A DNA stretch of 44,219 nucleotides, taken from the sequence record NC_049813.1. One strand, written 5' to 3'. The translations under genes and the position numbers were made by a program. Each line of letters begins with the position of its first letter. Position 1 is the first letter of the stretch. The notes under the pieces were generated by a model, which was not told the origin of the DNA, ran no database searches, and worked only from the letters and a program-made list of their open reading frames with translations. Below, in pieces: positions 1,662-3,730 of this stretch. The stretch comes from Escherichia phage vB_EcoS-12210I.

Positions 1662-1855
1662 TTTATCTTAACCTCTACGTTTCTAAGTGATACATCTACA
1701 GGGATTTCACTGCATCCCATAATAGCCTTTGATATACCAGAGCATGTTGTTGTTATGTTTATCTCTCTTCCAGTTTCAAATTTTATCCTTATTCTTACCT
1801 CTGGATCTGATTCGTCGTTGTATGGTGACTTATTTATGTCTATAAAAGCCTTCAT
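1658..1855 (-). CDS. Hypothetical protein, 65 aa
   Basis: ORF with 4-nt overlap to downstream gene. Confidence 0.4.
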   Translation of the reverse strand: MKAFIDINKSPYNDESDPEVRIRIKFETGREINITTTCSGISKAIMGCSEIPVDVSLRNVEVKIK

Positions 1856-1859
1856 ATTT

Positions 1860-2189
1860 TTACTCCTTAACCTTAACTACTTTAACAGACTTCAAATCTT
1901 CTTCAGTGAAGTATCCGTTCAGTACATCCCTAGCTTCCTCTTTAGTCTCGAATCTGTCAGCCTCGCTCTTATTCGTGGTGTATCCAGCTGGGCCACCAAA
2001 ATAGCAGTCGCCGAACAGTGCGTTGTTTTTCTCTTTGATAATGTAGTAGGTCATTTCTGCATCTCTCTGGTTGTTTGCTTTCGATGAGTTAACTATATAT
2101 TCGGCACTGTAGCCAGTCCAATTGGTTTCACCAATCGTTGATTTAAACTTACGCGTGAATCCTTTGTAATCCCGTGTAGGTATTACCAC
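1860..2189 (-). CDS. Hypothetical protein, 109 aa (possibly shorter, starting at internal MTYYIIKEK)
   Basis: ORF; internal promoter-leader-like sequence TATAGTTAACTCATCGAAAG at about 2078-2097 precedes an internal ATG. Confidence 0.4.
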   Translation of the reverse strand: MVIPTRDYKGFTRKFKSTIGETNWTGYSAEYIVNSSKANNQRDAEMTYYIIKEKNNALFGDCYFGGPAGYTTNKSEADRFETKEEARDVLNGYFTEEDLKSVKVVKVKE

Positions 2190-2360
2190 TAGTTACGTTT
2201 CTTGGCATCTCAGCCCAGCCATAGCTCAATGTAACCATCGTGTATATCGTGTATATCATTTATTGCTAATGGTGCATTGGTATAGCTGTCGCGCAATACT
2301 GTATAAATCCACATGATATTAAAATTATAACCGGAACACTCTATAGAAGTAGTTACATGA

Positions 2361-2427
2361 TATACACAGTAATATATATAATAATAATAATAAGAGTAAA
2401 AGGTTGATATATATAGATATTTTAATG
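2361..2427. repeat. AT-rich repeat copy A with (ATA)4 tract; about 90 percent identical to 29409-29483
   Basis: Shared TATACACAGTA..(ATA)n..GTAAAAGGTTGATATATATAGATATT. Confidence 0.8.
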
Positions 2428-2501
2428 TAACTAATGCGTAAATTGGCGTAACAGCGCGTATATCATTTTTCGCGGATGAGATTGCATACATCGAGTTACA
2501 T

Positions 2502-2517
2502 CGGTTACGTGTAACCG
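2502..2517. promoter_or_regulatory. Perfect inverted repeat CGGTTAC-GT-GTAACCG
   Basis: 7-bp arms, 2-bp spacer, in the control region upstream of the 2752 regulator gene. Confidence 0.4.
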
Positions 2518-2540
2518 TGATTTGTGGTGAAATTGGCGAT

Positions 2541-2560
2541 AAATAGCACTAATTGCTAAA
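2541..2560 (+). promoter_or_regulatory. Promoter-like element copy b
   Basis: AAATAGCACTAATTGCTAAA followed 20 bp later by TATTAA. Confidence 0.5.
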
Positions 2561-2637
2561 GACATTCTGATAATTTCATTTATTAACTCAGGGAGCGAGG
2601 TTTTTACTTTACTTTTTGGATGGCAATTTTGTTTAAG

Positions 2638-2703
2638 TGACTACAATTAAATGTAGTCATTTTAAGTGACTGCAATAAAATGTAGTCAGCAATATTGACT
2701 ACA
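2638..2703 (+). promoter_or_regulatory. Operator-like array: two 22-bp palindromes (TGACTACA-N6-TGTAGTCA at 2638-2659; TGACTGCA-N6-TGTAGTCA at 2667-2688) plus half-site 2696-2703
   Basis: Tandem 29-bp units each holding an inverted repeat, directly upstream of the RBS of the 2752 HTH gene. Confidence 0.6.
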
Positions 2704-2751
2704 TATGAGTTAACGAGTATATTCATCGCATACATAACGGGAGGATGAAAG

Positions 2752-3081
2752 ATGAGAATGACAAGCACAAGAAAAAAGGTAATTGATTGCATACTACACT
2801 GCACTGAAGGATGCGATAGGTACAGCCCTACCGCGGATGATGTATCTAGATTGACAGGAATCCAAAGGGCTAACGCAAGGAGGACCTTGCTTGAACTTGA
2901 ATCTTATGGGGTTGTTGAAAGGGTTGAAGTTGCCTCTTACTACTCAGTCTCAAGGCGTATTGACATAAAAAGAAAATGTACAGGATGGAATGTTACAGGC
3001 AAAAAACCAGAGCCAATAGAGAGATTGAAGCTGTCTCAGGATGATGCTGATAAATTGATTAATAAAATTTTTGGCGGTTAA
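2752..3081 (+). CDS. Putative winged-helix DNA-binding regulator, 109 aa
   Basis: GGAGGA RBS; HTH-like segment SPTADDVSRLTGIQRANARRTLLELESYGVV. Confidence 0.5.
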   Translation: MRMTSTRKKVIDCILHCTEGCDRYSPTADDVSRLTGIQRANARRTLLELESYGVVERVEVASYYSVSRRIDIKRKCTGWNVTGKKPEPIERLKLSQDDADKLINKIFGG

Positions 3082-3730
3082 AATGAATATCAAGCCATTT
3101 AAAGATACCAACGTTGCCATGATGAGCACCAAAGAGATCGCGGGGTTAACTGGTAAAGAACATAATAAGGTAATTCGTGATGCCAAGGAAATGATCAATG
3201 ATTTGATACATTATAACAACTCCTCATACTTAAGGAGTGAGGATTATCAAGTACTTACAGATAATTTAGGCTATACATCAGAGATTTTACTTAACAAGGA
3301 ACTTACAGAAACGCTAATAACTGGCTACAGCGTCATTCTTCGTCACAGAGTTATCCGTCGACTTCATGAGCTTGAGGCGTTAGTTAAAAAACAAGCAGAA
3401 GTAATCAGCCAGATGGTAAGCATTAATGAACTTAAAGAGGTTCGAATGATGCTTGGTGTGGCTAATGCGCAGAATGCACACCTGAGCCAGCGCATTGTTG
3501 CAGAGCAAAGAATAAATGAGATCTTACTCATGGATAAGAGTACCGATGAAAAACTAGACATGCTGGCTTGTGAGGCTCGCCAGTGTTGGGCTAGTCGTTC
3601 TGATGAGATGGAGGAAAGATTTAAGTATGAAGCCCAATGCTTCGCCCTTAAAGAAAAGAATGATGCGCTGACTGGATTGATTGAGAATAATCTCGGAATT
3701 GACATTAAGCTGCTGCTGGAAAAGAAATAG
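3071..3730 (+). CDS. Rha-family phage regulatory protein (putative)
   Basis: N-terminal MSTKEIAGLTGKEHNKVIRDAKEM resembles the Rha/pRha motif; coiled-coil-like C-terminus. Confidence 0.5.
   Translation: MAVKMNIKPFKDTNVAMMSTKEIAGLTGKEHNKVIRDAKEMINDLIHYNNSSYLRSEDYQVLTDNLGYTSEILLNKELTETLITGYSVILRHRVIRRLHELEALVKKQAEVISQMVSINELKEVRMMLGVANAQNAHLSQRIVAEQRINEILLMDKSTDEKLDMLACEARQCWASRSDEMEERFKYEAQCFALKEKNDALTGLIENNLGIDIKLLLEKK

Follow-up and report, generated by a model that had tools for sequence, protein, structure and literature searches.

In phage P22, the first gene of the arc-ant operon encodes a small repressor, which represses the promoter that also drives the anti-repressor gene. Here we describe a locus of the same gene order in Escherichia phage vB_EcoS-12210I (sequence record NC_049813.1); the whole stretch of 44,219 nucleotides (nt) that was analyzed is called the window. 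An array of five half-sites (2638-2703) lies directly upstream of a gene for a 109-amino-acid winged helix-turn-helix (wHTH) protein, and a Rha/anti-repressor-like gene follows it. We think it probable that the five half-sites are the cognate operator of the 109-residue protein, placed on its own promoter, by which the protein would limit the expression of itself and of the Rha-like gene.

The immI arc-ant operon of P22, in which Arc acts at Pant, resembles this locus in that a small repressor gene comes first, an anti-repressor-type gene comes next, and the operator lies over the operon's own promoter. A self-limiting burst of expression would be expected from both. The resemblance is one of function and gene order only. 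Arc is a ribbon-helix-helix protein that binds one operator of 21 base pairs (bp) as a tetramer, whereas the protein studied here is modeled as a winged helix, not as the ribbon-helix-helix fold of Arc and Mnt, and its putative operator consists of four to five half-sites over about 66 bp. P22, a temperate phage, has Mnt in addition, whereas the present phage is of the T1-like, virulent type and no second repressor was seen; there is no sequence homology between the two systems. We regard P22 arc-ant as the closest known functional analogue of this locus, not as its homologue.

The modeled protein shares the H1-H2-H3-wing fold of the MarR, SlyA, MepR, Fur and LexA-type repressors. The operators of those repressors are palindromes of about 20-24 bp that overlap the -35 and -10 elements, autoregulation is common among them, and Fur-like proteins can occupy arrays of adjacent sites. 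Unlike MarR, which has dimerization helices, and unlike LexA and Fur, which have second domains, the 109-residue protein has a single C-terminal helix, and it contains no ligand or cleavage domain. Lambda O is a further system to be compared, since its N-terminal winged helix gives weak profile and fold matches. The lambda iterons are a tandem set of internally palindromic sites. However, the protein studied here has no C-terminal domain of the O type and its gene is not conserved among the relatives of the phage; its putative sites lie upstream of the gene on a promoter, whereas the lambda O iterons lie inside the initiator gene. We know of no phage-encoded transcription regulator described for the T1-like phages (Drexlerviridae), and in the literature on the regulation of Drexlerviridae and Veterinaerplatzvirus we found nothing on the wHTH gene or the array. 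The re-annotation of phage TLS lists only three sigma-70-like promoters and leaves the regulatory repeats unexplained (PMC11447400).

The array consists of five 8-bp half-sites of the TGACTACA type, which alternate in orientation with spacers of 6, 7, 6 and 7 bp and start at 2638, 2652, 2667, 2681 and 2696:

2638-2645, + strand: half-site 1, TGACTACA, forward
2652-2659, - strand: half-site 2, TGTAGTCA, reverse; forms a perfect 22-bp palindrome with half-site 1 over a 6-bp spacer
2667-2674, + strand: half-site 3, TGACTGCA, forward, with one deviation
2681-2688, - strand: half-site 4, TGTAGTCA, reverse; pairs with half-site 3 (6 bp) and with half-site 5 (7 bp)
2696-2703, + strand: half-site 5, TGACTACA, forward; overlaps the -35 hexamer, 48 nt before the ATG at 2752

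A preliminary description of this stretch, made from the letters alone, had proposed two tandem 29-bp units, each carrying a 22-bp palindrome, with a third half-site about 50 bp before the ATG. The units (2632-2660 and 2661-2689, 90% identical) and both palindromes are where it had placed them, and the last half-site is indeed found at 2696-2703, 48 nt from the start codon. Palindrome 1 (TGACTACA-ATTAAA-TGTAGTCA, 2638-2659) is perfect, but palindrome 2 (TGACTGCA-ATAAAA-TGTAGTCA, 2667-2688) is imperfect, having one mismatch in TGACTGCA. The deviating G of this half-site is also present in the 97%-identical relatives L004 and L005. Half-sites 4 and 5 form a further perfect inverted repeat across 7 bp.

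When up to three mismatches were allowed, the pattern of the 22-bp palindrome was found at two places in 44,219 bp, both in the array; the mean in shuffled sequences was 0.19, and none of 100 shuffles reached two. The 123 bp upstream of the ATG contain four in-phase inverted repeats with at most one mismatch, a number equaled by none of 2000 shuffles. Targets in the host were also considered. Among 185,579 species-representative genomes, the exact palindrome is absent from Escherichia and the other enterobacteria, and its 43 matches are in scattered taxa and within chance. A BLAST search of 5,426 E. coli genomes left the palindrome unmatched, although a lone degenerate 22-mer is beyond the reach of BLAST and weaker host sites are possible. 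Exact and degenerate searches of IMG/VR gave phage IME253 plus chance matches, and none of the 36 other matches was palindromic.

We then compared the contigs that encode each relative of the wHTH protein. They represent six lineages, and in all six, four to five alternating 8-bp half-sites, mostly with 6-7-bp spacers, lie directly upstream of the wHTH gene and end 14-50 nt short of its start codon. The arrays read as follows, the numbers being spacer lengths in bp:

Window, L004 and L005 (P0001): TGACTACA-6-TGTAGTCA-7-TGACTGCA-6-TGTAGTCA-7-TGACTACA
L045 and L046 (P0002): TGACATCA-6-TGATGTCA-6-TGACATCA-6-TGGTGTCA-6-TGACATCA
L050 and L051 (P0006): TGATGTCA-6-TGACATCA-6-TGATGTAT-6-TGACATCA
L047 (P0003): TGACATCG-6-TGATGTCG-7-TGACACCA-6-GGATGTCA-8-AGACATCA
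L048 (P0004): AATCATCA-6-TGATGATA-7-TGCCATCA-6-TGATGACC-8-AACCATCA
L049 (P0005): TGAGGTCA-6-TGACTTAA-6-TTAGGTCA-6-TGACCTCA

The architecture is constant over the lineages. That is, the orientation alternates, the period is 14-15 bp, and the final site is forward, facing the gene. The type of half-site is TGACTACA in the window, TGACATCA in L045, L050 and L047, nnnCATCA in L048, and TGACCTCA/TGACTTAA in L049. The central bases of the half-sites vary by lineage, jointly on all sites of an array, and the outer TGAC and CA bases are unvarying in most arrays. The predicted recognition helix of the protein varies as well. The helix RGNVRRTLY (P0002, P0003 and P0006) is found with ACATCA, RGSVRRTLY (P0004) with nCATCA, RANARRTLL (window) with ACTACA, and VSNARREIL (P0005) with AC(C/T)T(C/A)A. 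This covariation of half-site and helix is the pattern that would be expected of a cognate protein-operator pair. T1-like phages with the Rha-like gene and without the wHTH gene, for example CEB_EC3a, lack the array, and gene-linked, co-varying sites, as an autoregulated repressor should have, were found in all six lineages.

The region from half-site 5 through the Rha-like gene contains the following features:

2695-2723, + strand: predicted sigma-70 promoter of the wHTH-rha operon (TTGACT, 17 bp, TATATT; 10/12 matches)
2740-2744, + strand: Shine-Dalgarno sequence GGAGG, 7 nt ahead of the wHTH ATG
2752-3081, + strand: wHTH gene, 109 amino acids, the proposed repressor
3083-3730, + strand: Rha/anti-repressor-like gene (Pfam Phage_pRha, phrog_8235), the proposed co-regulated cargo

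The promoter is the best promoter-like site within 1800-3300, and transcription would start near 2730. Its -35 hexamer is half-site 5 together with the T before it. When seven loci were scanned by the same criteria, a forward half-site always provided the -35 of the top-scoring promoter of the sigma-70 type (10-11 of 12 matches, spacer of 17 bp), and the end of the -10 was 23-32 nt from the ATG; for L047 and L048, a promoter scan gave the same result. The promoters of L045, L047, L048 and L050 have a reverse half-site within the spacer and the -10 between two sites, and their predicted start coincides with the last forward half-site. In the window and L049 the promoter is displaced by one unit; both share the downstream sequence TATATTCATC, and L049 has the same TTGAC(C/T)-17-TATATTCATC promoter as the window. 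That is, the predicted overlap of array and core promoter includes the -35 in all seven loci, and the spacer and the start also in four lineages. The half-site core TGAC(A/T) resembles a -35 element in itself. Because the forward half-sites provide the -35 in all loci, protein bound along the whole array would be a competitor of sigma region 4 in each lineage, and in most of them a filled array would cover the entire core promoter. In L047 and L048, a strong intrinsic terminator (8-bp stem, six G-C pairs, T run) ends just before the array; thus the array must hold the promoter, and half-sites 1-3 are left untranscribed.

The 109-residue product had been described beforehand as a small HTH protein with a winged helix, and our analysis agrees with this. 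In Pfam it gave sub-threshold winged-helix matches (TrmB, 21.3 bits against a cut-off of 25.6; HTH_IclR, 20.3 against 22; DprA_WH, 14.5 against 22.9), and its best profile match in the PDB was LexA (E = 3.6e-4). A model made by AlphaFold from the single sequence was unusable, with a predicted local distance difference test (pLDDT) value of 48.5, whereas the model made on the seven-sequence alignment had a mean pLDDT of 81.6. The latter contains H1 (5-19), H2 (28-35), H3 (39-51), a beta wing (55-81) and a C-terminal helix (96-107), that is, a three-helix bundle with a beta-hairpin wing and H3 as the recognition helix. The predicted recognition helix spans about residues 39-51 (RANARRTLLELES), and R43 and R44 in it are invariant across the family. 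With this model, Foldseek found DNA-bound MarR, SlyA, MepR, Fur and LexA-type winged helices as the top matches in the PDB, PerR and TFE-type ones also being matched, and both HTH regulators of phages and N-terminal domains of initiators in BFVD; the probabilities of the top matches in both were 0.97-1.00 (most 1.00), with every E-value in the PDB above 1e-3. The weak and generic matches to profiles of PHROGs, NCBIfam and the PDB, together with the winged-helix fold, indicate a winged helix outside any described family.

The family is very small. Among 1.8 billion representative sequences and 5.8 billion clusters, only five other protein clusters related to the 109-residue protein were found. 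A word-indexed single-sequence search gave one 97%-identical cluster only, an exhaustive HMMER scan of the 1.8 billion representatives gave four further clusters at 34-40% identity, and a profile search added the sixth cluster. In 50,697 GenBank phage records, searched with three different family members as queries, only the 41 isolates of the present phage carry the gene, and searches of viral contigs and species-representative genomes gave no family members. A metagenome search gave four distant relatives in high-GC phages, which match in the N-terminal part only (residues 1-58 to 1-61) and have no arrays upstream; they are thus uninformative as to the operator. Two of them (L052, 773-1150; L054, 3001-3384) start with MRMTENKRRILEAL and are 38-48% identical over the N-terminal 58 residues. 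Among relatives of this type, a DnaB-like helicase gene immediately precedes one and a lambda-P-like gene precedes another, and upstream of L052 and L054 there are single TGACCACA or TGACCACCGTCA motifs only. The reading of the array as an operator is well supported by the comparative evidence, and the protein would represent a new, very small family of putative winged-helix repressors with co-varying operators in T1-like phages.

On the basis of these comparisons, the locus may work in the following manner. Host RNA polymerase would initiate at the sigma-70 promoter, and the wHTH and Rha-like genes would be co-transcribed as a two-gene operon. The wHTH protein would recognize TGACYRCA half-sites, and presumed dimers would occupy the TGACYRCA-N6-TGYRGTCA palindromes and half-site 5; the spacing inside the N6 palindromes is invariant, and that between palindromes is 6 to 8 bp. 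Cooperative occupancy would then reach half-site 5 and occlude the -35, giving negative feedback on both genes, and an early burst of the operon might thus be followed by its shut-off. A filled array would also stop read-through from a possible promoter at the upstream element b (2541-2561), which is described below. The array itself, its being unique in the genome, its conservation together with the gene and its overlap with the predicted promoter are observations, and the sequences are also the evidence for the two-gene operon and for the recognition of TGACYRCA half-sites. The binding, the stoichiometry of the dimers, the sign of the regulation and the timing of the switch are what we infer from the arrangement of the sequences. 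The suggestion of the preliminary description that the layout is an autoregulated operator set is supported by the presence of the array in every relative, by the half-sites that change with the helix, and by the -35 in a forward half-site.

Several points weigh against an autorepressed operon. In the window and L049, the -35 is the only promoter element that the array overlaps, the -10 being downstream of the array, a geometry that also fits an activator. From center to center the half-sites are spaced by 14-15 bp, a distance that differs from one helical turn, so the candidate binding units are forward-reverse pairs over N6 or reverse-forward pairs over N6/7. The 109-residue protein does not reach the threshold of any curated family, and all seven members gave weak, generic matches below the cut-offs of Pfam (TrmB, HTH_IclR, MarR, LexA_DNA_bind), NCBIfam and PHROGs. 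Six lineages are known, and the correspondence of helix to half-site is anecdotal at that number. Lastly, five Rtp-like phages (IME253, ZL19, TR3, phiA2-1 and one more) have a related array of two palindromes and no member of the wHTH family in the whole genome. In IME253 (L002, 2501-2560), this array reads TGACCACA-ATAAGA-TGTGGTCA and then TGACTGCA-ATAAAA-TGCAG(-)CA; it lies directly past the stop codon of the Rha-like gene and is fused to half an element b. Compared with palindrome 1 of the window, its first palindrome shows a symmetric change of T to C and A to G and is still perfect, and its sites fit the TGACYRCA consensus. The homology to the window stops inside half-site 4, and a different 89-residue gene comes next. 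We read the IME253-type array as a probable remnant of an operator, left after replacement of the regulator gene; it may instead have an independent role.

The geometry of the window and L049 leads to the question of activation. If the wHTH protein were an activator or a two-way switch, dimers at about -52 and -81 and the half-site at -35 would recruit RNA polymerase, and the autoregulation would be positive; alternatively, it might mainly block read-through from upstream and do less to repress the promoter of its own operon. The arrays of the window and L049 do stop at the -35, leaving the -10 (TATATT) outside, and the element b promoter with its weak -10 (TATTAA, 2581-2586) could read into the array. 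However, the -35 hexamers are already near consensus (TTGACT, TTGACA, TTGCCA, TTGACC) with 17-bp spacers, and four of the six lineages have half-sites over the spacer and the predicted start, which is the layout of a repressor. We consider these roles unlikely. The palindromes might also act as RNA hairpins in the rightward transcript, that is, as terminators, attenuators or RNase III/processing sites independent of the wHTH protein. The region 2600-2751 folds better than its shuffles on both strands (z -3.4 and -3.9), but a palindrome array gives a high fold score automatically. TTTT follows hairpin 1, the mismatches of three arrays would be G-U pairs on the + strand, the related palindromes of IME253 immediately follow a stop codon, a place that suits a terminator, and a terminator scan flags 2704-2680 on the - strand. 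The same scan leaves palindromes 1 and 2 uncalled on the + strand, and Rfam gave no credible match for the array region. The 8-bp stems have three G-C pairs and weak T runs, and the array of L047 has a C-A mismatch. Further, the odd fifth half-site and the arrays of L049 and L050 that begin with a reverse site make no sense as hairpins, and in L047 and L048 a real, strong terminator precedes the array, the only good promoter lies inside it, and half-sites 1-3 are outside the mRNA. A hairpin function thus seems very unlikely to us.

That the array consists of iterons and the wHTH protein is a lambda-O-like, origin-binding initiator, as the preliminary description had offered as its second option, is in our opinion extremely improbable. 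Four of the seven members match phrog_678 ('replication initiation O-like') at E = 3e-4, which is weak, and there are weak matches to N-terminal models of phage replisome organizers; the BFVD matches include GpO N-terminal domains and replicon-initiation proteins. These O-like matches are no stronger than those to MarR, TrmB, LexA and GntR, all are below the cut-offs, and the match to the O-like PHROG spans only positions 76-147 of the 346 in the profile. A conserved, AT-rich non-coding block (21% GC) lies some 120 bp away from the array, and the origin of the T1 family has not been identified (PMC11447400). In L045 and L050, however, the array is on the opposite side of that block, with a gene in between. 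The distant N-terminal relatives are located in replication modules, but they have no arrays. Moreover, the protein has 109 residues in a single domain, without the second, helicase-recruiting domain in the model, and the sites are inverted repeats that coincide with a predicted promoter. Since the wHTH gene is absent from all other phages in the GenBank records, and from almost all Drexlerviridae, it cannot be the initiator of the family. Another factor might bind the array, either the Rha-like protein through its N-terminal DNA-binding domain or a regulator of the host. The Rha-like gene always adjoins the wHTH gene, and their co-occurrence by itself does not tell which product would be the binder; in the IME253-type phages, a related array is accompanied by a Rha-like gene and no wHTH gene. 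On the other hand, most T1-like phages carry a Rha-like gene without any array; L050 and L051 retain the array with an interrupted Rha-like gene; and the Rha-like proteins of the window and L049 are 73% identical, yet their half-sites differ. A host factor would leave the change of the half-sites from phage to phage unexplained, and the exact palindrome is not in the enterobacterial representative genomes. We find either binder highly improbable. It is equally hard to credit a filament, in which dimers at every 14-15-bp half-site junction would insulate or organize the AT-rich block (a candidate origin) and couple early shut-off to the initiation of replication as an accessory O-like origin-binding module, the IME253-type arrays then being targets of cross-regulation among co-infecting T1-like phages.

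Autorepression of the wHTH-rha operon is thus the explanation that we prefer, and the elements upstream of the array can be considered separately from it. The preliminary description had placed two of them in the array:

2502-2517, no strand: palindrome CGGTTAC-GT-GTAACCG with perfect 7-bp arms; not part of the operator
2541-2561, + strand: element b, a copy of the T1-family direct repeat aaATAGCACnnnTTGnTAAAA; not part of the operator

Both are present as it had said, the inverted repeat being perfect. However, the palindrome is part of a non-coding block that T1-like phages without the wHTH gene have conserved, and element b is a repeat that occurs genome-wide in the T1 family. Neither is linked in its occurrence to the TGACTACA array.

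The 21-nt direct repeat aaATAGCACnnnTTGnTAAAA was reported for TLS, T1, Rtp and Rogue1, and its function was left open (PMC11447400). The copy at 2541-2561 matches this repeat, is intergenic and oriented, and is one of many. The sequence ATAGCACTAATTGCTAAA of this copy is at 2543-2560, and a weak -10-like TATTAA is at 2581-2586. With up to three mismatches, the window has 15 copies against 0.03 expected, all oriented with the downstream genes (678, 2543, 3727, 14942, 25593, 26425, 27318, 27824, 29764, 30410, 32992, 33150, 37104, 40109 and 41152). Unlike the TGACTACA array, the repeat is found over the whole genome and also in T1-like phages without the wHTH gene. The copies have the form ATAGCAC-N5-TGCTAAA, and most of them have a TATAAT-like hexamer some 22 nt past TTGCTA and, between the hexamer and the Shine-Dalgarno sequence, a conserved CATCGAAACGA box. 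The distance to the hexamer would place TAGCA-N5-TGCTA around -42, where the site of a class II activator lies. The wHTH protein was considered as the factor of element b and rejected, because all T1-like phages have element b, whereas the wHTH gene is not common to them all.

The CGGTTAC palindrome is not significant alone. Its pattern, with up to three mismatches, has two matches where 0.99 is expected, and as many are reached in 28 of 100 shuffles. In close relatives its outer C-G pair is lost and it reads CGGTTACGTGTAACTG; the core GGTTACGYGTA (CATCGGTTACGYGTA invariant) is conserved across T1-like phages. It forms the 3' end of a conserved non-coding block at about 2341-2515, which ends in the invariant CATCGGTTACGYGTA and is found across Braunvirinae and Rogunavirinae, including phages without the 109-residue gene such as IME253, CEB_EC3a and AHP24. 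Among the loci compared, L002, L006, L007, L049 and L050 have the block. It contains a run of 21-22% GC (ATATATATAATAATAATAATAA) and GCGTAA-type repeats about 10-11 bp apart (2436-2460), and the eight GTTAC/GTAAC pentamers in 350 bp at this place are the maximum of the window. The sequence CGTGTATAT occurs twice in tandem at 2239-2256, and a 24-nt repeat beginning with CG(T/C)GTATATCATTT occurs at 2248 and 2455 with 79% identity (features at 2239-2271 and 2455-2478); the tandem and the repeat flank the AT-rich core of the divergent region. The block could be an origin or a divergent early-promoter region. The GC skew of the window follows gene orientation only and marks no origin.

The phage belongs to Drexlerviridae, Braunvirinae, genus Veterinaerplatzvirus. 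The 2-kb region around the array is 100% identical to that of Escherichia phage vB_EcoS-12469II and its sister isolates; there are 41 near-identical isolate records, 40 of 44,219 bp and one of 44,091 bp. In the annotation of vB_EcoS-12469II, all relevant genes here are 'hypothetical protein'. The array sits within a divergent intergenic region (2190-2751). The genes on its two sides are as follows:

Leftward, left of the intergenic region: two 64-residue genes, then a DUF3799/PD-(D/E)XK exonuclease gene (696-1661)
Rightward, + strand, after the Rha-like gene: a small lipoprotein gene, then a membrane-protein gene

In relatives, Erf is also in the leftward gene set. The pairing of the wHTH and Rha-like genes recurs in L045, L047, L048, L049 and L050, and in five of the six lineages the two genes overlap or are 1 nt apart (overlap in four; in the window, the Rha-like gene starts 1 nt past the wHTH stop codon). 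L045 and L050, which are metagenomic T1-like phages, have the wHTH-rha module at the head of the recombination operon, in the order 64-residue gene, wHTH, rha, DUF3799 exonuclease and Erf on the same strand, whereas in the window the module points away from that operon. This opposite facing indicates that, with respect to the conserved non-coding block, these phages differ by an inversion, either of the module or of the recombination block as a whole. In L050 (6336-6830) and L051, which are independent assemblies, the Rha-like gene has an in-frame stop at codon 50; the wHTH gene and the array are intact in both despite the interruption.

The borders of the homology bear on how the module came to its place. 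In BLAST searches with the intergenic region, 2190-2513 or 2190-2564 is common to many T1-like phages, and from about 2565 through the end of the 109-residue gene the matches are confined to this phage species. In CEB_EC3a and IME253, TATATT lies 22 nt after the TTGCTA of an intact element b, and this intact promoter probably drives the Rha-like gene directly. In the window, the homology stops just after element b and the -10 position reads TATTAA. From this break and the altered -10, insertion of the module appears to have moved the Rha-like gene off the family-wide type of promoter and onto a self-limited sigma-70 promoter.

The kind of switch proposed here is an ordinary, textbook one; the protein family is undescribed. 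The locus offers a small and cleanly testable putative repressor-operator pair in the T1-like family. Its natural specificity variants, TGACTACA, TGACATCA and TGACCTCA with their variant recognition helices, might be used as orthogonal regulatory parts, and they may also serve as a model for the co-evolution of protein and DNA specificity. For the biology of the family, a few T1-like phages appear to have put the widespread Rha-like gene under a self-limiting promoter in place of that of element b, which gives a hint that the dose of the Rha-like protein matters.

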